DNA of 64,000 nt from an uncultured bacterium (GTDB taxonomy: Bacteria > Verrucomicrobiota > Kiritimatiellia > RFP12 > UBA1067): positions 15,758-79,757 of the forward strand of contig CACWVU010000004.1 of the NCBI GenBank assembly GCA_902764415.1. The letters run 5' to 3'. Of the stretch, positions 2,386-60,390 are shown in pieces (the stretch's first letter is position 1; every line of letters starts with the position of its first letter). The notes under the pieces were generated by a model that saw nothing but the letters and a program-made list of their open reading frames with translations, was not told where the DNA came from and did not search any database. Made by a program: the position numbers and the translations under genes.

Positions 2386-3759
2386 CTACTCCTTGACCTT
2401 GGGCAGCTTCTCGAGGCTGAGCCGGATGTCCTCGTCGGTCGGCTCGCGGTCCTCCATCCGCCCGTCGTTGAACGCCTGGTAGGCGGTGAGGTCGAAGTAC
2501 CCGGTGCCGGTGAGTCCGAAGAGGATCGTCTCCTCGCGCCCCTCGGCCTTGCACTTCAGCGCCTCGTCGATCGCCGCGCGGATGGCGTGGCTGGACTCCG
2601 GCGCCGGCAGGATGCCCTCGACGCGGGCGAACTGCACCGCGGCGGAGAATACGTCGGTCTGCTTCACCGAGACGGCCTCCATGAGCTTCTGGTCATAGAG
2701 CTCCGACAACGTGGAGCTCATGCCGTGGAAGCGGAGCCCGCCGGCGTGGCTCGGCGAGGGGATGTAGTCCGCGCCGATGGTGTACATCTTCGCGAGCGGG
2801 CAGATGCGGCCGGTGTCGCAGTAGTCGTAGGCGTACTTGCCGCGGGTGAACGACGGGCAGCTCGCCGGCTCGACGGCGACAATGCGGCAGTCGCGCTCGC
2901 CGCGCAGCTTCTCGCCCATGAACGGCGCGATGAGCCCGCCAAGGTTGGAGCCGCCGCCGGCGCAGCCGATGATCACGTCCGGATACTCGCCGAGCTTCTC
3001 GAACGCGGCGTGCGCCTCGAGGCCGATGATGGACTGGTGCAGGAGAACCTGGTTGAGCACCGACCCGAGAACGTAGCGGTAGCCGGGGTTCTTCACCGCC
3101 GTCTCCACCGCCTCGGAGATCGCGCAGCCAAGCGAGCCGGTGGTGCCGGGGTGCTCGGCGTTGATGAGCTTGCCGATTTCGGTGGTCATCGACGGCGAAG
3201 GCGTCACTTCGGCGCCGTAGGTGCGCATCACCTCGCGACGGAACGGCTTCTGCTCGTAGGAGCACTTCACCATGAAGACCTTGCAGTCGAGGCCGAAGAA
3301 CGCACAGGCCATCGAAAGCGCCGTGCCCCACTGTCCCGCGCCGGTCTCGGTGGTCACGCCCTTCAGTCCCTGCTCCTTCGCGTAGTACGCCTGGGCGACG
3401 GCCGAGTTGAGCTTGTGCGAGCCGGAGGTGTTGTTGCCCTCGAACTTGTAGTAGATCTTCGCCGGGGTGCCGAGCGCCTTCTCGAGGAAGTACGCGCGGA
3501 CGAGCGGCGAGGGACGGAACATGCGGTAGAAGTCGCGGATTCCAACCGGAATCTCGAACTGGGCGGTGTCGTTGTCCAGCTCCTGGCGGACCAGCTCTTT
3601 GCAGAACACCGGCTCGAGGTCCTCGGCGGTGCAGGGCTTGCCGGTGGCGGGCACGATGAGCGGAGCGGGCTTCTTCTTCATGTCCGCGCGCATGTTGTAC
3701 CAGAACTTCGGCACTTCGTCTTCGCCGAGGTAGGTCTTGTAGGGGATGATTTTACTCAT
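2386..3759 (-). CDS. tryptophan synthase beta-like PLP enzyme (TrpB2-type)
   Basis: Start moved to MSKIIPYKTY (RBS AAAGGAAG). Motifs GSHKLN and GGGSN typical of the TrpB family. The ORF-track N-terminal extension is Arg/Ala-rich GC artefact. Confidence 0.75.
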   Translation of the reverse strand: MSKIIPYKTYLGEDEVPKFWYNMRADMKKKPAPLIVPATGKPCTAEDLEPVFCKELVRQELDNDTAQFEIPVGIRDFYRMFRPSPLVRAYFLEKALGTPAKIYYKFEGNNTSGSHKLNSAVAQAYYAKEQGLKGVTTETGAGQWGTALSMACAFFGLDCKVFMVKCSYEQKPFRREVMRTYGAEVTPSPSMTTEIGKLINAEHPGTTGSLGCAISEAVETAVKNPGYRYVLGSVLNQVLLHQSIIGLEAHAAFEKLGEYPDVIIGCAGGGSNLGGLIAPFMGEKLRGERDCRIVAVEPASCPSFTRGKYAYDYCDTGRICPLAKMYTIGADYIPSPSHAGGLRFHGMSSTLSELYDQKLMEAVSVKQTDVFSAAVQFARVEGILPAPESSHAIRAAIDEALKCKAEGREETILFGLTGTGYFDLTAYQAFNDGRMEDREPTDEDIRLSLEKLPKVKE

Positions 3760-7288: not shown

Positions 7289-7297
7289 TGGTATAAT
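7289..7297 (+). promoter_or_regulatory. extended -10 TGGTATAAT, leaderless promoter of the ydbH-like gene
   Basis: TGGTATAAT + ACACGCC (7 nt) + ATG at 7305. The predicted TSS coincides with the start codon. Confidence 0.55.
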
Positions 7298-10369: not shown

Positions 10370-10430
10370 GTGATTTCCCTCTCCTTCTCAAGCAATTTGA
10401 AACATAGTATATCACAACCCCGATAATTTG

Positions 10431-10476
10431 TCTATTAGGAATCCGAGGATTTGTCTATTAGGAATCCGAGGATTTG
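10431..10476. repeat. perfect 23-bp tandem duplication (TCTATTAGGAATCCGAGGATTTG x2)
   Basis: Seen directly in the sequence, immediately upstream of direct-repeat copy 2. Confidence 0.85.
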
Positions 10477-12138: not shown

Positions 12139-15100
12139 CGCTCATATAGGAATCTGCATCGAACTCACCTTGGTGTTCGACGATCTGATATACGGTAAGG
12201 GGATTGAAGTCCGTGCCCTGAAGCGCATCTTCTATCGCCATCTCGACCTTTCGCCGGCGTATGGCGTTTCTTCGAAAGCCGGGCTTGGCGCTTGCTCCGA
12301 CAGCCTCGAAGACCTTGAGCGCAAGGTCAGCATCGCCGCCCAGGTTGTCGCACAGGCTACGCTTGGCCTCGGTGTCCAGGCGCGGATCTTCAACTGCCGT
12401 GTCGCCTTTCAGTTCCTTGCCCATCTTTGCGATTTCCGCAAGTAGCTTTCTGTATTCAATCTTCTCCTTGCGGTAGTCTTCGAGAAGCCTGTTAATGCGC
12501 TCAGAGAACTTGCGGTACTCGGCAGGGTTGGTCTCTTTCTTTCTGAAGATGTAGCGTCTGACGTTTGCCACAAGCGTTTCCGCGACGCCGCGTTCGCCCC
12601 CGACCTCGGACTCCACGTCGGGATCGACCGACCCTCCATCGTCTTTGTCGATTTTTATCAGATCGAGAAACGAAAGATCCTCGAGGTCGGCGAGTTTCAA
12701 CGCATGCTTGGCCGTGACGAAATTGTCGAGAAGCGATCGCATCTCGGCATCGTAGAGCTTGAGGTCCACGAAATCGCCGGCTCGCTTCATGATCGCCTCG
12801 CGCAGCATGTCGTAGTTGCGCACCTTCTCCTTTAGCGCAGCCGCCTCGGCGGGGGAGTAGCCGGCCTCGTCAGTTTCCTGCGCGATGTCGCTCCAAGCCC
12901 TTACCGCGGCGATGCAGGCCTGGTAGAAGTCTTCCCGCAGCTGCGAATCCCCGGGTCTCTGCGCTTCACCGCCAGGTTCTGCGCCTGGGCGCGTGCCGTT
13001 CTGCGCTTCGTCGCGTGCGATGAAGTAATCGCAATACTCATCGATCCCCTTCGGCGGCAGTACCGGTTCCGAAAGAATATCGCACCGTTCAAGAGCTGCT
13101 TCAAGCGCCTTGCGACCTTCTTCAAGCCGTCCCTTGAGGAGCCCCTCTACATCTTCTTTCTCAAAGTTCTTGAACGCGCCGTTGGTGTAGTCTTTGACTG
13201 CGCCCCTTATGCTCTCAAAGAGATGTTTGTAGTCGATGATGTAGCCATAGCGCTTTTTCTCCCCGTTTAGCCGGTTGACGCGGCAGATGGCCTGGAAAAG
13301 GTTGTGGTCTTCCATCTTCTTGTCGATGTAGAGATAGGTTGCGGGCGGCGCGTCAAAGCCGGTCAGCAGCTTGTCAACCACAATCAGCAGCTTCATCTTC
13401 GCCGGATGCTCGACAAACTCCTTCTTCGCCCATTCTTCGAAATCTTCGGGCGATTTTTCTCCGCGCATAGCAAGGTTCATCCTGTGCTTGTACTCGGCTT
13501 CGGTAAGCTGCTCGCCGGTGAACGCCTCGGCAAGACTTGGCTCGTCGCCACCGTAGCTCGTCACTACGGCGCAATGATCCTTCAGCGGCGAGAGAGCGTC
13601 GCTGAACATCGCCCAAAACCGATATGCCTGATACACCGACTCGCAAACCAGCATCGCATTGCCCCATCCGTCGCGGAGCGCTGGCTTGAGCCCCATGTCC
13701 ATGCAGATGTCGGTGACAATACGCTGTACGCGCTCTTTCGCCGAAAAGAGATTCTGCATCCGCGCCCAGCGCTTCTTCAGCTCTTCCTTCTTGGCGGGAA
13801 GAAGGTTCTTGGTCTTATGTTCGAAAATCGAGTCGAAAGTCACGTCTTCGGCGAGGTTCTGCTCGATGTCGCGCGCCTCATAGCGCAAATCAAGCACGAC
13901 GCCGTCCTCTACCGCCTCATCGAATTTGTAGGTGTGGATGAACGGCCCGAAATTGGCATAGCTCGTAAGCACTCCCTTCTCGCTTTTGAGAAGAGGCGTT
14001 CCCGTAAAGCCGATCAGCATTACATCTGGCCCCATGATCTTCTTCATCGCCAAGTTCATCACCCCGCCTTGCGTGCGGTGGCACTCGTCAACGAAAACGA
14101 AGATATCGCCCTTCGCCTTGAAGCCCAGCGGCAATTTCTCGGCAAGCTCCTTCAAATAAACCGCAGCCGACCTTTCACCCCGCAATCTGCGCTCGCGAGC
14201 ATCAAGCTTCTCCTTGGACCCATTCGCGCCAAATTTGTGAATCAGTGTTGTAATAAGCCGTTCACGCGATTTGTTCAACGTTGCTATCAAGTCGGCGCCA
14301 CTTGTCGCGCGATATGGCTTCTCGCCGGCCTCCTTGAAGCCGTTTGTAATCTGCTTGTCGAGTTCGTCGCGGTCGGTGATTATCACCACCCGCGCATCGG
14401 GGCGATGTTCCTTGATCCACTGCGCAAGCCAAACCATCGTAAGCGACTTGCCGGAGCCCTGCGAATGCCAGATGATGCCCGACTCCTTGCGCATGATGCG
14501 AGGCTTCGCCGCCTCCAGCGCAAAGAACTGTGCAGGTCGCATAACCTTCTTCACACCGCCGTCAAAGACGATGCCGTCGTGTATAAAGGCCAGCAACCGC
14601 TCCTTGTCAAGCATCTGTGCAAACGAGCGGTCAACGAGCGGCTTTATCTCCGCTTTGCTCCACCTCGGCACGGCGCACGGATTGCCACAAGGCTCTTTCC
14701 ACTTCAGCCAGTGTTTCTCAGGGGTGAGCGTCGTCGCATACTTCAGACCCTCAGATTCGTTGCCCGCCATCAGCAGCTGCGCAGCGGCAAAAAACGCCGG
14801 TATCTCCCCCTCTTGCTGATTGCGGTAGTTCTGGCGAATTCCCTCGGCCACGCTCACATTCGCCTTCTTTAGCTCGATCACGCAAAGGGCAATGCCATTC
14901 ACCCAGATCACGACATCAGGCCGGCGATGGCCGTTTGCCGCGACCTGCCGCCTTACAGTCACCTCCTCGGCTATGGAGAAGTTGTTTTCGAGCGGGTGTT
15001 GCCAGTCGATGAAATAAACCTGTTTCATCGGCTTCCCGGGCTCGGTCGCAATCGACATCGGGTATCTGAGGGTCAAATACACTTCTTTGTTTACGTTGTA

Positions 15101-15389: not shown

Positions 15390-16700
15390 TTAACTAACTG
15401 CTTGCGCCACCGCCTCGTCGATGCCGCTCAACACTGCTCCTTTGTAATCGATTTCAACCGCGCCATCATCGGCAATCAGCTGGGCAATGCGGTTTAAAAC
15501 CTGCGCCTCGTGGCGCGTCATTGCTTTCTCGCCCGGCACATACGGCCAGCCAATCGGCGCGAGCATCAGCAAATTGCCCGCCGCACACGTTTCAAATAGC
15601 TTGCCGCCCGGCTTGTAGAGCGGCGAAAAGCCCTTGTTCTGCAATGTTATCACGCGGTGCCCCGCCTCGAAGGCGCGGCGGGCGATCTCGCGCTCGCCAT
15701 GGCTGATGCATGGGCTAAGCAACACCGCGCCCTGCGCCGCCGCGCGCATGGCGGCGGTCGCCTTTTCCTCAAATTCAGGTGTTGATTTTTCCACCATCGG
15801 CTTGCCGGCGGAATCGCGGCAAATTTGCCAACCACTCGGCAACCGCCGCCGCTTGTAGGCGAAGAAAGAGCGCGAGCATTGAATCTGGCAAATAATCGGC
15901 CGCGTCAAAAGAAAGTGGTTGCCAATCGCCATAAAATGCCCCTTCGCCGGGCCGCGCCAGGGGGGAATACCGGCTCGCTCGCGAGCCGACGCAGAACCAG
16001 CCTCGCCCCAACCGGGGTTCTGCGCTTGGGCGCGCGTGCTGTCCTGCGCTTCGCCGCGCGCACGGTTCTGCGCTTCGCCGCACGTGGGGTCCTGCGCTTC
16101 GCCGCGCGCGGCGAAGTCAACCTCAATATCGCGTGCCACCTTGAAAAGTTCTAGGCAAGCCCGCTTGATGCCCAAGCGCCGCGGGTTGGCACGAATGTAG
16201 GCAATCATCTTTTCAAGCTGCCCCGCGCGAAATAGTATCAAATCAACATACCCAGGCGCCCATAACCCTACCGCCATGTTCTGCGCTTGGGCGCGTGCGT
16301 GTCCTGCGCTTGGGCGCGTGTTCCAAAGTTCCCCCGCGCGGCTTGTACTTTTCGACTTGAAGCTGCCGATGATATTGCCAAGTTTTTTCTTCTGCTGCTC
16401 CTTCACGAAGATGATGCCATGAAAATGATCGGGCATCAGCTGGCTTTCAATCACTTCAACCCCTGGCCACTGCTGAGGAATCTCGCGCCAGCATTGCTCG
16501 ACAATCAACCCGATCTCGCTTGGCTCAACCCGCCACTCCTCGCCCTCGCCGACAAGCCGCCCCAAAGCCGGCCGCGACCGATCGGCCAGCGTGATCGTGA
16601 TCATGTAAATGCAGCGCGAGGAATAGTCCCAGTTGAAGCACCGCCGTCCCATGTGGTGCTTCACCTCCTGCCTCACTTCGCTCTTATGTTTAGCGGTCAT
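15390..16700 (-). CDS. RayT/IS200-like HUH Y1 transposase domain fused to an unknown C-terminal domain, interrupted by in-frame repeats
   Basis: HuH motif MPDHFHGIIF plus LWAPGYVDLILF...YIRANPRRLG (the RayT 'W..F.DH.I...Y..NP..GL' pattern). Unknown C-terminal domain of about 200 aa. Repeat-encoded RAQAQN/GEAQD stretches. Confidence 0.6.
   Translation of the reverse strand: MTAKHKSEVRQEVKHHMGRRCFNWDYSSRCIYMITITLADRSRPALGRLVGEGEEWRVEPSEIGLIVEQCWREIPQQWPGVEVIESQLMPDHFHGIIFVKEQQKKKLGNIIGSFKSKSTSRAGELWNTRPSAGHARAQAQNMAVGLWAPGYVDLILFRAGQLEKMIAYIRANPRRLGIKRACLELFKVARDIEVDFAARGEAQDPTCGEAQNRARGEAQDSTRAQAQNPGWGEAGSASARERAGIPPWRGPAKGHFMAIGNHFLLTRPIICQIQCSRSFFAYKRRRLPSGWQICRDSAGKPMVEKSTPEFEEKATAAMRAAAQGAVLLSPCISHGEREIARRAFEAGHRVITLQNKGFSPLYKPGGKLFETCAAGNLLMLAPIGWPYVPGEKAMTRHEAQVLNRIAQLIADDGAVEIDYKGAVLSGIDEAVAQAVS
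16015..16112. repeat. GC-rich 24-bp tandem repeat x4 inside the RayT-like gene
   Basis: GGTTCTGCGCTTGGGCGCGCGTGC-type units, in frame. Confidence 0.75.
16276..16322. repeat. GC-rich 24-bp tandem repeat x2 inside the RayT-like gene (between the HuH and Tyr motifs)
   Basis: ATGTTCTGCGCTTGGGCGCGTGCGTGTCCTGCGCTTGGGCGCGTG. Confidence 0.75.
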
Positions 16701-31790: not shown

Positions 31791-31818
31791 TATCTGCGGT
31801 TCGTGATTCGTGATTATA

Positions 31819-32052
31819 AACTCCGATCCGTAGGGCTCTCGCTACCGCTCCGCAGAATGGTCGATGCTTCGCATTTGACATTCGTCTTACACGGCCATAC
31901 TGACCTTATTTTATATCTGCGGCTTCGCCGCAGGGGGCTCATGGGGTCTGGGGCGGAGCCCCAATTAAAAAACAAAGTCATGATATCATCAGTATTGGGG
32001 TTGGCAGATGCGAAGCTGCGGAGCGGTAGCGGGAGCCCCAACCATCGGAGTT
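31819..32052. repeat. structured repeat element with about 45-bp terminal inverted repeats, copy A (MITE-like or structured RNA)
   Basis: Ends AACTCCGATCCGTAGGGCTCTCGCTACCGCTCCGCAG ... CTGCGGAGCGGTAGCGGGAGCCCCAACCATCGGAGTT. Core TTTTATATCTGCGGCTTCGCCGCAGGGGG. Hairpin TGGGGCGGAGCCCCA. Second copy at 51958-52227. Confidence 0.75.
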
Positions 32053-32062
32053 CCAACTATCC

Positions 32063-39288: not shown

Positions 39289-39313
39289 ATGGCTGTTTGT
39301 CCTTTTCGAGGTG

Positions 39314-39337
39314 TCTAGGATCCTAGGTTTCTAGGAG
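39314..39337. promoter_or_regulatory. CTAG-rich palindromic motif TCTAGGATCCTAGGTTTCTAGGAG in the rnfB-rnfA intergenic region
   Basis: Shares about 22 bp with 48046-48076. CTAG is otherwise nearly absent from the window. Confidence 0.4.
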
Positions 39338-46183: not shown

Positions 46184-46207
46184 TATTCGGGGGGAGCGTG
46201 GTTAGTA

Positions 46208-46355
46208 TTCAGCAGCCAGCAGCCAGTATTCAGCAACCAGTAATAAGGATGAATCGTCCTCATCCCACTGGAAGCTGATCACTGGCTGCTGGTTGCTGGC
46301 TGCTGGCTGCTACATTAGTGTTCAACAGCCAACAACCAGTATTCAGCAACCAGTG
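46208..46355. repeat. CAGCAG-type inverted-repeat element, copy 3
   Basis: CAGCAGCCAGCAGCCAG...core TAATAAGGATGAATCGTCCTCAT...CACTGGCTGCTGGTTGCTGGCTGCTGGCTGCT...CAACAGCCAACAACCAG. Confidence 0.7.
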
Positions 46356-46357
46356 AT

Positions 46358-47893
46358 TTAGAAGAACAGGTCGCGTTCGCCGCGGCAGGTGGCCTCGTAC
46401 TGCTTCATCACCGCCGGGTAGAACTTCGGCACCCACTCCTTGATGCCGGCGAGCTCCTTTTCGATCAGCGCGTCGCCAAGGCGGCGCGTCTCGTCGGACG
46501 CGAAGTCGTCCAGCCATTCCCGGAAGGTCAGCACCGCGTTGATCTTGCAGAACTTCCCCTCCCGCCCGGTCTTCAGCGCGTCCATGATGCAGCCGCCCGT
46601 CCGTCCGCAGCGGTAGCCGGCGGTGCAGAACGAGGTGATGATGCCGCGCGAGGCGAGGTAGCGCACCATCTCGTCGAGCGAGCGGTTGTCGCCGAGCATG
46701 AACTGCTGGCGGTCCTTGTCCTGCTGCGCCTCGTTCGCGAAGTCGCTGTAGCCCTTGATCGCGATGTTGGAGGAGCAGTCGAGCTGGGTCATGCCGCAGC
46801 CGAGGACGCGGTTGCGCGACTCCGGGCTCTCGCGCGCGGTGATGATGATGCCGGTGTAGGGGACGGAGAGGCGCGCGATGACGACGATGCGCGCGAAGGT
46901 CTCGTCGTCGATCAGCCACGGCGACTCCTCCGGCACCTTCGTGCCGCTCGCCGGCTCGAGGCGCGGGAACGAGAGGGTGTGCGGGCCGATGTTGAACCAG
47001 CGCTCGAGGTCGCGTGCGTGCATCACCGTCGCGAGGAGCTCGAACCGCCAGTCGCAGAGGCCGTAGAGGACGCCGAAGCCGACGTCGTCCACGCCCGCCT
47101 CGAGGCAGCGGTGGAAGCAGGTGACGCGCCAGTCGTAGTCGCCCTTCACGCTCCACTTCGGGTGCATCGACTCGTAGAGCCGCCGGTTGTACGTCTCCTG
47201 AAACACCTGGAAAGTGCCGATGCCCACCGACCGCAGCACCTTGAGGTCGGCCACGGGCAGCGGCGCTGCGTTCACGTTGACGCGCCGGATGCCCACCGGC
47301 GCGCCTGTCTTCGGCGCCCTGACCTGGTGGCGGTAGCAGGTCTCGATCGTCTCGGCGATGTACTCGGTGGAGGTGGTCGGGTGCTCGCCGTAGACGGCGA
47401 TGAGCCGCTTGTGGCCGATGCGCCCGGCGAGGACGTCGATCTCCTCCTTGAGCTCGTCCATCGTGAGGACGCGGCGCTTCTGCTCGCCGTTGCCCTCGCG
47501 GAAGCCGCAGTAGCGGCAGCCATTGACGCAGAGGTTGGACATGTAGAGCGGAGCGAAGACGACGATGCGGTTGTCGTAGACCTTGTGCTTGATGCGGTCC
47601 GCCGCCGCGCGCATCTCCTCGAAGAGCGCGGGGTCGGCCGACGCCGCCATCAGCGCGGCCGTCTCCTCGGGCTGAAGCGTCTCGCAGGACGCCTCCGCCT
47701 TGGCGATGATCTCCCTGACGCGCGCCGGGTCCGCCGGCTTCGCCGCGATCTCGTCGATGCAGCGCGAAATCCGAGCCTCGTCGATGAAATGCCGTCCGCC
47801 GGGGAGGTAGCGCTCCACCTCCCCGCGCACGACGAAGTTCCTGCGGTAGTCGTCCGCGTCCTTGAATTTTCTTATGCCTGAACAGTCTGCCAT
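46358..47893 (-). CDS. radical SAM enzyme of the ThiH/HydG family (likely the [FeFe]-hydrogenase maturase HydG)
   Basis: YDNRIVVFAPLYMSNLCVNGCRYCGF N-terminal cluster motif. A C-terminal extension with CTAGYRC..GRTG..C resembles the HydG auxiliary-cluster region. 511 aa. Confidence 0.7.
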   Translation of the reverse strand: MADCSGIRKFKDADDYRRNFVVRGEVERYLPGGRHFIDEARISRCIDEIAAKPADPARVREIIAKAEASCETLQPEETAALMAASADPALFEEMRAAADRIKHKVYDNRIVVFAPLYMSNLCVNGCRYCGFREGNGEQKRRVLTMDELKEEIDVLAGRIGHKRLIAVYGEHPTTSTEYIAETIETCYRHQVRAPKTGAPVGIRRVNVNAAPLPVADLKVLRSVGIGTFQVFQETYNRRLYESMHPKWSVKGDYDWRVTCFHRCLEAGVDDVGFGVLYGLCDWRFELLATVMHARDLERWFNIGPHTLSFPRLEPASGTKVPEESPWLIDDETFARIVVIARLSVPYTGIIITARESPESRNRVLGCGMTQLDCSSNIAIKGYSDFANEAQQDKDRQQFMLGDNRSLDEMVRYLASRGIITSFCTAGYRCGRTGGCIMDALKTGREGKFCKINAVLTFREWLDDFASDETRRLGDALIEKELAGIKEWVPKFYPAVMKQYEATCRGERDLFF

Positions 47894-47907
47894 GGTGATG
47901 GGTGCGT

Positions 47908-47916
47908 ATTATACCA
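47908..47916 (-). promoter_or_regulatory. extended -10 TGGTATAATACGCACC, near-leaderless promoter of the radical SAM gene
   Basis: 14 nt between the -10 and the ATG. The heptamer array lies immediately upstream. Confidence 0.5.
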
Positions 47917-47924
47917 CTTTTTGG

Positions 47925-48046
47925 GGTTCGTGGTTCGTGGTTCGTGGCTCGTGGTTCGTGGCTCGTGGTTCGTGGCTCGTGGTTCGTGGCTCGTGGGGCG
48001 GGGCTCGTGGTTCGTGGCTCGTGGGGCGGGGCTCGTGGGGCGGGGC
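47925..48046. repeat. tandem heptamer array (GTTCGTG / GCTCGTG alternating, about 15 units, degenerating into GGGGCGGGGCTCGTG)
   Basis: Seen directly in the sequence. Occupies the -35 and upstream region of the promoter. Confidence 0.85.
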
Positions 48047-48076
48047 TAGGATTCTAGGCTTCTAGATTTCTAGGAC
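48046..48076. promoter_or_regulatory. CTAG-rich motif CTAGGATTCTAGGCTTCTAGATTTCTAGGAC (second copy)
   Basis: Related to 39314-39337. Confidence 0.4.
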
Positions 48077-48099
48077 AGGTAGGACGGGAGGGTTGAAAG

Positions 48100-48170
48100 C
48101 AACCAACAACCAGCGGCCAGGGATGTTGCTGGCTGCTGGGTACTGGCTGCTGGTTGCTGGTTACTGCTAC
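48100..48170. repeat. CAGCAG-type inverted-repeat element, copy 4 (short)
   Basis: AACCAACAACCAGCGGCCAG...TGCTGGCTGCTGGGTACTGGCTGCTGGTTGCTGG. Confidence 0.6.
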
Positions 48171-48174
48171 AACT

Positions 48175-48657
48175 CTACTGCAGCAGCACCTCGCGCTGCT
48201 CGTAGTGGCCGGGCTGCCAGACGCGGATCACGGTGCCGTTCGCCTGGACCTGGTCGACGTACCGCCCCTCGACCCAGACGTTCTGCACCGTCGCCGCGGG
48301 CGCGGTGACCACCGGGGTGGTGACCACCGTCGGCGTGGTGACCACCGTCGGAGTCGTGACCACCGTCGGAGTCGTCACGTAGGTGACAGGCCTGATCGAG
48401 TTGTAGACAAGCCCGCCAACAACCCCGCCGACGAAGCCCGGCCAGAAATGACGCCCGCCACGGCCCCAGCCGCTGTGGTAGTGGTGCGGCCCGTGGTGGA
48501 AGCCGTGGTGCATCACCGGACGCGGACCGTGGTGGAAACCGCCAGGACGAGGCCCGCCCCGGAAGCCGCCATGCCCACCGTGGAAGCCGTGGGGACCTGC
48601 AAACGCGCCGATTGCGAGGACGGCAGTGCCAACCGCAACTATGAGTTTCTTGTTCAT
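48175..48657 (-). CDS. secreted His/Gly/Pro-rich protein with TTPTVV repeats
   Basis: Signal peptide MNKKLIVAVGTAVLAIGAFA, RBS AAAGGAG. (GFHHGP)-type His-rich stretches. 18-nt DNA tandem repeats encode VVTTPT x4. Confidence 0.55.
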   Translation of the reverse strand: MNKKLIVAVGTAVLAIGAFAGPHGFHGGHGGFRGGPRPGGFHHGPRPVMHHGFHHGPHHYHSGWGRGGRHFWPGFVGGVVGGLVYNSIRPVTYVTTPTVVTTPTVVTTPTVVTTPVVTAPAATVQNVWVEGRYVDQVQANGTVIRVWQPGHYEQREVLLQ

Positions 48658-51879: not shown

Positions 51880-51957
51880 AAAACCGTGGCCGTGGCGCAA
51901 ATCGGGTGTGGGGTTCTCGCGGCTGATTTTTCTCACACAGAGACACAGAGGTTTTTT

Positions 51958-52227
51958 AACTCCGATCTGTGGGGCTCTCGCTACCGCTCCGCAGAATAGG
52001 CTATGCTTCGCATTTGATATTCGTCAATACACAGCCACTTTTGCCATGTTTTATATCTGCGGCTTCGCCGCAGGGGATATAGTTCGGGGGTCTGGGGGTA
52101 GCGCCCCCAGATAAAAAACTATGTGCCCTTTGTGCTCTCTGCGTTATAGACAAATGACATGGTACTGGATTGGGGTTGCGAGATGCGAAGCGGCGGAACG
52201 GTAGTGAGAGCCCCAACCATCGGAGTT
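51958..52227. repeat. structured repeat element, copy B
   Basis: Same termini and core as 31819-32052. The hairpin is replaced by CTGGGGGTAGCGCCCCCAG, a compensatory change. Confidence 0.75.
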
Positions 52228-52237
52228 TCATACAAAA

Positions 52238-53296: not shown

Positions 53297-53323
53297 TCGT
53301 GGTTCGTGGCTCGCGGCTCGCGG
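53297..53323. repeat. short heptamer array (GTGGTTCGTGGCTCGCGGCTCGCGG)
   Basis: Same family as 47925-48046. Confidence 0.6.
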
Positions 53324-59751: not shown

Positions 59752-60390
59752 TCACCAGAACTCCCAGTGGTCGGCGAAAACGACGAGGAGGCCGAGGGCG
59801 AGGTTGGTGACGGCGTGGGCGACGATCGCGGCGAAAAGACCGAACCGCCGCGCGACGAGTCCGTAGACGACGCCGGCCACCGCGCCCACCGCCCAGCGAT
59901 CGCCATGCTCGACGGCGAAGAGCGCCACCATCCACCAGAATCCGGCGAAATCCACCAGCCACCGGCGGAAGAAAAGCTCCTCCGCGGCGGAAATGACGAA
60001 CGCACTCGCCGCCAGCTTCGCAAGCGTCAGCGCCCAGCCGCAGACCTCGGGCGAATACGGCGAATCCGCCGCGGAAAGCGGCGCGGCGGCGGGGACGCCG
60101 GGGAACGAGCCGAGCCAGAGCTCGGGCGCGATCCAGACGACGAAGACGAGAAGGCCGGCGAGAACGGAGAGGGCGTGATTCGTGGTTCGTGGTTCGTGGT
60201 TCGTGGTTCGTGGTTCGTGACTCGTGGTTCGTGGTTCGCGGTTCGTGGGGAGAAATGCGATGAGCAACGCGGCGGTAACGGCGCCGCGGACGGCATACGC
60301 CCAGGCGGTCGCGGGCAGCGTGACCATCAGCGCCATCCAGGCCGCGTAGGGGGCGACGAGGGCCACGCTTCTCTTCGCTCCGTCCGTCAT
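59752..60390 (-). CDS. CPBP (CAAX) family intramembrane metalloprotease
   Basis: AAEELFFRRWL (the EExxxR motif) and FxxxH. Contains an in-frame heptamer array encoding (HEPRTTN)3. Confidence 0.75.
   Translation of the reverse strand: MTDGAKRSVALVAPYAAWMALMVTLPATAWAYAVRGAVTAALLIAFLPTNREPRTTSHEPRTTNHEPRTTNHALSVLAGLLVFVVWIAPELWLGSFPGVPAAAPLSAADSPYSPEVCGWALTLAKLAASAFVISAAEELFFRRWLVDFAGFWWMVALFAVEHGDRWAVGAVAGVVYGLVARRFGLFAAIVAHAVTNLALGLLVVFADHWEFW
60170..60235. repeat. heptamer array (GTTCGTG x about 9) in-frame inside the CPBP protease gene
   Basis: 63 nt = 9 heptamers = 21 codons. Gain or loss of one unit would shift the frame. Confidence 0.8.

Follow-up and report, generated by a model that had tools for sequence, protein, structure and literature searches.

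Hypermutable heptanucleotide repeat arrays upstream of hydG and inside a CPBP-family gene of an uncultured rumen Kiritimatiellae bacterium

We analysed four tandem arrays of a 7-nt unit in a 64,000-nt stretch of contig CACWVU010000004.1 (hereafter, the window) from an uncultured bacterium of the Kiritimatiellia. In coding sense, the four arrays belong to one family, (CCACGAA/CCACGAG)n or CCACGAR. Two are long, one upstream of hydG and one in frame inside a gene for a CPBP membrane protein, and two are short, upstream of mscS and of an SGNH hydrolase gene. An original prediction made from the DNA letters had listed these four arrays, and all of them exist. The arrays are probably heptanucleotide long simple sequence repeats (SSRs) of the kind described in cyanobacteria as short tandemly repeated repetitive (STRR) sequences, in Xanthomonas and in Beggiatoa, and they would be hypermutable tracts rather than dedicated switches. 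This reading draws on how the arrays are built and how they vary, on CPBP alleles that all keep the frame, on the lack of arrays in close relatives, on an RNA without structure, and on occurrence across many taxa. The original prediction had proposed phase-variable loci. The long arrays are indeed mutational hot spots, whereas the switch function found no support, given that only in-frame alleles of the CPBP gene were found and that the promoter core of hydG is invariant.

The two long arrays and their variation among strains

The main array (47925-48046, minus strand) comprises 17.4 units in coding sense, with alternating CCACGAA and CCACGAG and three GCCCCGC units. About 15 units had been expected here, upstream of the -10 of a HydG-like gene; the location was right, the count was higher, and the gene encodes a true HydG (TIGR03955, 413.5 bits against a cut-off of 312). 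This 511-aa radical-SAM maturase of the [FeFe]-hydrogenase H-cluster is encoded at 46358-47893 on the minus strand, as are nearly all window genes, and matches Pfam Radical_SAM and BATS. The program TRF resolved the array at period 7 with 14.3 copies (47925-48024) and at period 14 with 8.1 copies and a 90% match (47925-48038). The 14-mer GTTCGTGGTTCGTG, with up to two mismatches, has 24 matches in the window where 0.53 would be expected, and none of 100 shuffles reached 24. Head-to-tail 7-nt units far above chance, the mark of a heptameric long SSR, were found with 14.3 copies in this array and 10.7 in the CPBP array.

The spacer upstream of hydG (47894-48174) contains, in coding-sense order, the stop of a 160-aa open reading frame (ORF), a CAGCAAC-type hairpin, CTAGAANN octamers, the CCACGAR array, CCCCAAAAAG, the TGGTATAAT box, 14 nt, and the ATG. 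The extended -10 of hydG, TGGTATAATAC, is located at 47906-47916 on the minus strand; the array ends 10 nt upstream of it, the ATG follows 14 nt downstream, and no -35 was found. Neither an intrinsic terminator nor a -35/-10 consensus promoter was predicted in 47800-48250. The 160-aa ORF (48175-48657, minus strand) has no family match, and the repeat-filled spacer is its 3' flank. The hairpin, formed by inverted CAGCAAC/CAGCCAG heptamer arrays just past the stop of this ORF (48080-48166, minus strand), folds at -42.4 kcal/mol (z = -6.35) and has no U-tract. Between the hairpin and the heptamer array, the octamer block (48046-48075, minus strand, about 3.8 copies) was invariant in 6/6 near-identical contigs.

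For the strain comparison, independent rumen metagenome contigs of the same population were retrieved by exact-protein look-ups, and the 160-aa ORF served as an anchor for retrieving additional contigs with the hydG spacer. Among otherwise identical flanks, the spacer measured 281 bp in four contigs (including the window and the edge-truncated L007), 253 bp in five, and 239, 225, and 265 bp in the others. The array changed mostly by whole 14- or 28-nt blocks in its middle or distal part, while the three proximal units and the CCCCAAAAAG-TGGTATAAT segment were constant among the near-identical strains. Slippage in the promoter arrays had been expected to alter the -35/-10 geometry; there is no -35 and the proximal segment is constant, and therefore this geometry is unaltered. 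In diverged strains, the spacer measured 304, 327, and 434 bp and carried different units, and hence both length and sequence vary between close relatives, as in STRR sequences. Two of these strains, L260 and L261, have an altered unit order and a 5- or 6-C tract. The third, L255, harbors an insertion of a miniature inverted-repeat transposable element (MITE) between the hairpin and the hydG promoter, together with an octamer array, (AACCACCT)3.5, at the exact heptamer site.

Two side observations concern the same spacer. Depending on the strain, 4, 5, or 6 C stand between the last heptamer unit and AAAAAG-TGGTATAAT (window positions 47921-47924), a tract that lies nearer to the promoter than the heptamer changes do. 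In one contig (L257, ERZ919333 scaffold_10254), an 18-nt deletion removes AAAAAGTGGTATAATACG, that is, the hydG promoter, and retains the array; hydG is called there with 309 aa instead of 511, and it may be a pseudogene or reflect an assembly error.

The second long array lies in frame in the gene of a CPBP or CAAX-protease-related membrane protein (212 aa, 59752-60390, minus strand; Pfam Rce1-like), which scores 78.3 bits against TIGR03008, just under the cut-off of 81.05. The frame had been predicted correctly, but the extent had not. The array spans 60174-60248 on the minus strand (75 nt, 10.7 units) instead of 9 units at 60170-60235, and its translation, PTNREPRTTSHEPRTTNHEPRTTNH, forms repeats of the type E[PS]RTT[NS]H in a protein loop. 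The unit CCACGAA has no stop in any of the six frames, each frame yielding the same cyclic heptapeptide PRTTNHE, and thus loop inserts of a net multiple of 3 nt are allowed. We rejected the stop-free unit as a special property, as the same holds for 50% of all heptamers; coding inserts become possible through it, but it explains nothing more.

Near-identical CPBP proteins in the protein database have 198, 205, 212, 219, and 220 aa and differ by whole E[PS]RTT[NS]H blocks of 7 aa. At the DNA level, fixed anchors stand 82, 103, or 124 nt apart, which corresponds to 8, 11, or 14 units and to exact steps of 21 nt (3 units). Ten further contigs were fetched via the neighbouring AI-2E transporter, so that their retrieval was independent of the CPBP sequence. 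Nine of the ten carry an identical array, and the tenth, from a diverged strain, carries a different low-complexity insert, also in frame. No frameshifted allele was found among about 20 CPBP alleles (the ten neighbour-anchored contigs and the closest database homologues, all from consensus assemblies). A 143-aa product (P0024) was considered as an OFF allele and rejected because its contig starts inside the repeat region. In CPBP homologues at about 62% identity, the loop is short and lacks the insert, and one close homologue is annotated as Kiritimatiellae. It had been claimed that any slip in this gene would switch it off or on; a 3-unit change keeps the frame, which is the sole kind of change observed, and so not every slip switches the gene. 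As far as the alleles go, the pattern would be the signature of slippage that occurs and of purifying selection on a functional gene that leaves frame-preserving outcomes alone, not of an on/off switch.

These length differences could be artefacts of short-read assembly, in which repeats collapse while the arrays are in truth stable, but we regard this as extremely unlikely. Contigs do break in or near the arrays (two end inside the hydG array and one inside the CPBP repeat), and Illumina assemblies are reported to perform poorly on long heptamer tracts (PMC12721329). Against this, the 253-bp hydG allele appears in three assembly sets that go by different names (STEW19 scaffolds, ERZ91xxxx scaffolds, and k141 contigs), and an allele-specific SNP (cacgGgcc) is common to L004 and L009, that is, to two pipelines. 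Collapse is unlikely because alleles recur across samples and pipelines and the linked SNP appears in two pipelines. In addition, perfect periodicity extends over about 60 nt at most, which is below k = 141 and below the length of the reads used; the CPBP steps preserve the frame, which an artefact would not respect; and the arrays differ in unit order and not in number alone. The artefact explanation that the original prediction had allowed for is thus answered by the same alleles in several samples and pipelines.

Length differences among strains, as anticipated, were found in the hydG and CPBP arrays, but not in the short arrays of mscS and SGNH, each identical in 10/10 contigs. The hypermutable tract that a contingency locus needs is therefore present in the two long arrays and not in the two short ones. 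The other repeats in these contigs (short arrays, CAGCAGC-type hairpin arrays, and octamers) were likewise invariant, in 6-10 contigs each.

Contingency loci, in which the array upstream of hydG would act as a transcription rheostat and changes of one or two units in CPBP would switch the protease in subpopulations, are an unlikely explanation. The hypermutability of both long arrays relative to their flanks speaks for it, and heptamer SSR rheostats are known from the hmw genes of H. influenzae (PMC12721329, PMC8262952). The contigs that end inside the arrays are compatible with length heterogeneity within a sample but are no proof of it. The poly-C tract of 4, 5, or 6 between array and promoter varies among diverged strains, and the contig without a -10, with its possibly truncated hydG, hints that the loss of hydG is tolerated. 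Nevertheless, the CPBP steps of 21 nt without any OFF allele, and the hydG promoter with an invariant core and three invariant proximal units and no -35 to re-space, suggest that length does not toggle expression at either locus. The array is missing from the closest orthologous hydG promoters. Unlike the hmw repeats, it lies outside the 5' untranslated region (UTR) and pairs with nothing. The genes concerned (HydG, MscS, SGNH hydrolase, and CPBP here; PolA and an ABC permease in a relative) show no association with surface, host-interaction, or restriction-modification (R-M) functions. These are housekeeping genes, and neither hydG nor the PolA gene of relatives is typical of contingency loci; the R-M island of the window is without SSRs.

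Promoter context, array RNA, and occurrence in relatives

Three of the four arrays (hydG, mscS, and SGNH) sit upstream of a TGGTATAAT box. This box is part of a conserved extended -10 motif, tttTGGTATAATACgc, with 19 occurrences in the window against 2.2 expected, placed shortly before about 12 gene starts and one tRNA-Pro; this tRNA-Pro was the only known RNA family that Rfam detected across the whole window. Sites of the motif, without a recognisable -35, are at 427, 29169, 31790, 39950, 46183, 47916, 48848, 51879, 53293, and 59745 on the minus strand and at 7289 on the plus strand. The motif is often 6-15 nt from the start codon, and such mRNAs would be leaderless or very short-leadered.

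The SGNH array (53297-53323, minus strand, 3.9 units) consists of two CCGCGAG units, one CCACGAA, and a final CCACGA, and ends 3 nt upstream of the TGGTATAAT box of the SGNH/GDSL-ABM gene. The recorded start of this gene is the second ATG, and an exact-protein look-up from the first ATG gave no match. The mscS array (31798-31815, minus strand), with 2.6 copies of AATCACG, directly follows a MITE-like element and ends 9 nt upstream of the mscS TGGTATAAT box. Short arrays had been predicted directly upstream of these two -10s, and their unit and position were borne out. As tandem repeats they are marginal alone, with TRF scores of 32-34 at a threshold of 30, yet they share the unit and the TGGTATAAT-adjacent position. 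Between array and -10 there are 3 nt for SGNH, 9 nt for mscS, and 10 nt for hydG, and therefore the register is not fixed.

We consider it very unlikely that the arrays are binding sites for a regulator or nucleoid protein that recognises heptad direct repeats, with the copy number setting the occupancy. One unit is shared directly upstream of the -10 at three promoters, the array keeps that position in diverged strains, and three units make 21 bp, which would be two helical turns. However, the register is not fixed, and the unit drifts freely among CCACGAA, CCACGAG, GCCCCGC, and, in L255, AACCACCT. The array is missing from orthologous promoters, the CCACGAR sequence is tolerated inside ORFs, other spacers carry unrelated heptamers, and the contiguous 7-bp period is unlike known heptad operators.

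On the sense strand, the main array contains 51% C, 20% G, and no T, with a C/G ratio of 2.5 across 122 nt. Its sense RNA is nearly unstructured (-3.2 kcal/mol, z = +1.87) and less folded than 197 of 200 shuffles. A structured RNA formed by the CCACGAR array was rejected, as folding is below the shuffled level on both strands (z = +1.9 and +1.6). A rheostat of the hmw type has its repeat between promoter and start codon and a repeat RNA that pairs into a long hairpin; here, the array lies wholly upstream of TGGTATAAT, and its RNA shows no such pairing.

A C-rich, G-poor, unstructured RNA of at least about 80 nt downstream of a gene is what a Rho utilization (rut) site presents, and the 122 nt in the 3' flank of the 160-aa ORF have these features. 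The unstructured (CCACGAR)n RNA might load Rho there and halt read-through before the hydG promoter, an insulating role proposed because the preceding hairpin has no U-tract. Its base composition and lack of folding agree with this, as does its place downstream of a -42 kcal/mol hairpin in a region without a predicted intrinsic terminator, and every window array has its C-rich strand in sense orientation. On the other side, the array is absent at hydG in close relatives and replaced by an octamer in L255, and the CCACGAR repeat also occurs inside ORFs, where termination would be harmful. An array in another genome (L129) seems, judged by eye, to have the opposite orientation, and the short arrays are far too short for a rut site. 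Altogether, we hold a rut site or insulator to be distinctly improbable.

A feature of the complementary strand was recorded separately. Four G4 tracts, separated by loops of 1, 5, and 1 nt, make the distal GGGGCGGGG units (plus strand, 48024-48046) a canonical G-quadruplex motif, which lies opposite the mRNA-sense strand and about 110 nt upstream of the hydG -10. The motif is present in the near-identical alleles and reduced to two G-tracts in L260.

The orthologous loci were then compared. In 60-odd HydG loci with 80-92% identity from JGI and ENA rumen metagenomes, the TGGTATAAT box is mostly kept, and the CCACGAR array was absent at all of these related hydG promoters. The closest two orthologues, L169 and L170 (92%), have the same promoter and the leader TGGTATAATtcacacttatcaccATG without any repeat.

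In a cross-phylum scan of species-representative genomes for arrays of at least three units, in which taxon counts are lower bounds, CCACGAR arrays were found in at least 118 genome stretches from many phyla, including the ruminant Kiritimatiellae metagenome-assembled genomes RGIG4394 and RGIG2765. Among the matches listed, 78 of the 108 evaluable arrays are not spanned by an ORF. In the window, 9/11 period-7 TRF arrays are intergenic, although intergenic DNA makes up a few percent, and the strong non-coding preference of STRR sequences is therefore found at both scales. Another perfect heptamer run of at least three units lies within 80 nt in 15/130 of the arrays among the matches listed; the idea of mosaic heptamer blocks everywhere was therefore rejected as too strong.

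In RGIG4394, the CCACGAR repeat is in frame in DNA polymerase I (PolA) and in a fusion protein of a substrate-binding protein (SBP) and a permease. Three heptamer-derived in-frame inserts, ATNHEPRITNHETRN, RTSDFGLRTSNSELRTSN, and EPRTPNHEPRTTSLEPRTTSHEPRTT, were noted in the PolA gene of this genome (L047, minus-strand 3220-3654), between and within the 5'-3' and 3'-5' exonuclease domains; RTSDFGLRTSNSELRTSN derives from a GGACTTC array. In L128, a similar insert follows the first transmembrane segment (TM1) of the SBP-permease fusion protein.

A bolder interpretation would take the CCACGAR arrays as cross-phylum heptamer blocks that are actively generated or positively maintained, by replisome slippage in a 7-nt register, which cells would exploit, or by a dedicated enzyme. 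They would serve as tunable modules, namely C-rich, unstructured 3'-flank rut sites or insulators that protect the following promoter and evolvable protein-loop inserts, and array length would set hydG expression by strain. We give this interpretation little credence.

Other repeats and the restriction-modification island

Besides CCACGAR arrays, the same spacers are filled with inverted CAGCAGC/CAACCAG arrays and CTAGAANN octamers, on both of which the original prediction was silent. A second heptamer family, CAGCAGC/CAGCCAG/CAACCAG, forms inverted arrays between hydG and pheS (46195-46340, minus strand), upstream of TGCTATAAT; the resulting hairpin (-83.2 kcal/mol, z = -10.3) was invariant in 10/10 contigs. 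The same family forms a hairpin at 430-570 on the minus strand, upstream of TGTTATAAT (-70.4 kcal/mol, z = -7.4). As in STRR-bearing genomes, several heptamer families are thus present, including inverted stem-loop pairs with hairpin z values of -6 to -10.

The loops of the two big hairpins (480-520 and 46235-46270) share a conserved module, AATAAGGATGnnnnGTCCTnnT, which forms a small stem-loop and holds a Shine-Dalgarno-like AAGGA followed by an ATG. It also occurs in the hydG-upstream hairpin of the diverged strains L260 and L261, and it could be mobile or have a function of its own, for instance as a terminator or a small ORF. CTAG-centred octamers (CTAGAANN or CCTAGRAN) were noted in two spacers, at 48046-48075 and 39304-39335.

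A MITE-like element of about 245 nt was found at 31815-32062 and 51937-52237 on the minus strand and at 1270-1560 of L255. Its terminal inverted repeats are AAACTCCGATGGTTGGGG at one end and CCCCACAGATCGGAGTTT at the other, and its 3' half is almost identical in the three aligned copies.

The window also includes a low-GC island (about 9000-31000; 39-58% GC against about 68% in the host). Its genes encode the Type I R-M proteins HsdR, HsdS, and HsdM, a second N6_Mtase, a YobI-like P-loop NTPase (1220 aa), RadC, and AAA_14/DUF4143, and there is a weak IS200-like match. The island boundary beside mscS is strain-variable, with the next gene starting at locus position 2534 or 2750. TRF detected no heptamer arrays in this Type I R-M island. 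Its ORFs hold tandem repeats of 22-24 nt (GGTCCTGCGCTTCGCCGCGCGTGC-like) at 16016-16109, 16277-16320, and 12976-13018, in a 436-aa ORF with a weak Y1 transposase match and in hsdR. At the island edge, the spacer that precedes the AAA_14/DUF4143 gene holds 2.2 copies of ATTTGTCTATTAGGAATCCGAGG, a perfect direct repeat of 23 nt (10426-10476).

Interpretation and comparison with known systems

If the arrays are heptanucleotide long SSRs, as we favour with moderate confidence, slipped-strand mispairing or unequal recombination would create them and drive their turnover in this lineage of rumen Kiritimatiellae, and they would persist, nearly neutrally, wherever selection tolerates them. The intergenic arrays would fill promoter-distal DNA, which for hydG is the interval between the hairpin after the upstream gene and the extended -10 without a detectable -35. 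Copy number at hydG would drift in 14- and 28-nt blocks with the promoter core untouched, and hydG expression would be affected modestly at most, as a by-product. Coding arrays would survive solely as frame-keeping inserts, with a net multiple of 3 nt, in permissive loops. In CPBP, slippage would take place and only the 21-nt steps would survive purifying selection.

Three points weigh against this interpretation. The alleles come from consensus assemblies, where minority out-of-frame or length variants within the population stay hidden. An array of some kind lies directly upstream of AAAAAG-TGGTATAAT in three diverged strains, in one of them with a different unit, and this persisting position could mean selection for a repeat there rather than tolerance. 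Finally, the sense strand is the C-rich one in each of the four window arrays and in the two coding arrays of the relatives, although almost all window genes are co-oriented, which confounds this bias with the replication strand.

If true, the interpretation as long SSRs describes a natural hypermutable heptamer microsatellite in an uncultured gut bacterium, filtered by selection, and it cautions that an SSR unit that is not a multiple of 3 does not by itself mean a phase-variation switch. The array would then be a strain-typing marker for rumen Kiritimatiellae and a data point on why heptamers are over-represented among bacterial SSRs. An interest for rumen hydrogen metabolism would arise only if array length turned out to tune hydG expression or transcription termination.

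Heptameric SSRs are over-represented in bacterial intergenic DNA and vary in length and sequence between close relatives, which is attributed to polymerase slippage; they sometimes form inverted stem-loop pairs and have no demonstrated function (PMC4692102; PMC4679880). The CCACGAR arrays would be a further member of this known but poorly understood class. They resemble the STRR sequences of Calothrix and Nostoc (GGGGAYT and others) and the GGGAATC repeats of Xanthomonas in being strongly intergenic tandem 7-nt units without preference for a particular gene class. In both, a genome holds several heptamer families, some of them in inverted pairs that can form stem-loops, and close relatives differ widely in length and sequence, with slippage proposed as the origin (PMC4692102). 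They differ in that the CCACGAR unit is not built on G-tracts (on the plus strand, a G-quadruplex could form in the distal GGGGCGGGG units only), in the rumen Kiritimatiellae host, and in the additional occurrence of the unit as an in-frame protein-loop insert.

The TAACTGA repeats of marine Beggiatoaceae, cyanobacteria, and Bacteroidetes also place one heptamer at many intergenic sites in scattered lineages, upstream of all functional classes including essential genes and occasionally inside ORFs (PMC4679880). However, only a few nt separate those repeats from the start codon, and they would presumably belong to the 5' UTR; a role in translation has been put forward for them, and their unit contains stop codons (PMC4679880). 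The arrays described here lie upstream of the -10, outside the gene's own mRNA, and their unit has no stop in any of six frames.

The closest functional precedent is the ATCTTTC SSR of H. influenzae hmw1A and hmw2A, which is likewise a heptamer in a control region with strain-variable copy number, at which short-read contigs break (PMC12721329, PMC8262952). Yet it is different in every testable anatomical feature. The hmw repeats are located in the 5' UTR, downstream of the promoter, and pair with a G-rich arm into a hairpin processed by RNase III; their unit is conserved in sequence, ranges from 11 to 63 copies, and belongs to an adhesin gene (PMC12721329, PMC8262952). Here, by contrast, the array precedes the -10, is lacking in close relatives, and gives an unstructured RNA; its unit drifts, and the gene is one for a hydrogenase maturase.

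Classical intragenic SSR contingency loci of Neisseria, Haemophilus, and Campylobacter, with units of 1-5 nt, share with the CPBP array a unit inside an ORF whose length is not a multiple of 3, so that a single-unit slip would shift the frame. In those loci, strains commonly carry ON as well as OFF alleles, and the genes have surface or R-M functions; here, 3-unit in-frame alleles alone were found, PolA carries the repeat in a relative, and the R-M island has none. In actinomycete promoters, operators of the SARP (Streptomyces antibiotic regulatory protein) type have heptads at 11-bp spacing (7 + 4) and at a fixed distance to the -10. Heptamer direct repeats that overlap or replace the -35 region near the -10 are common to both, but a SARP-like heptad operator was rejected for the present arrays, whose period is a contiguous 7 bp and whose distance to the -10 is 3, 9, or 10 nt.

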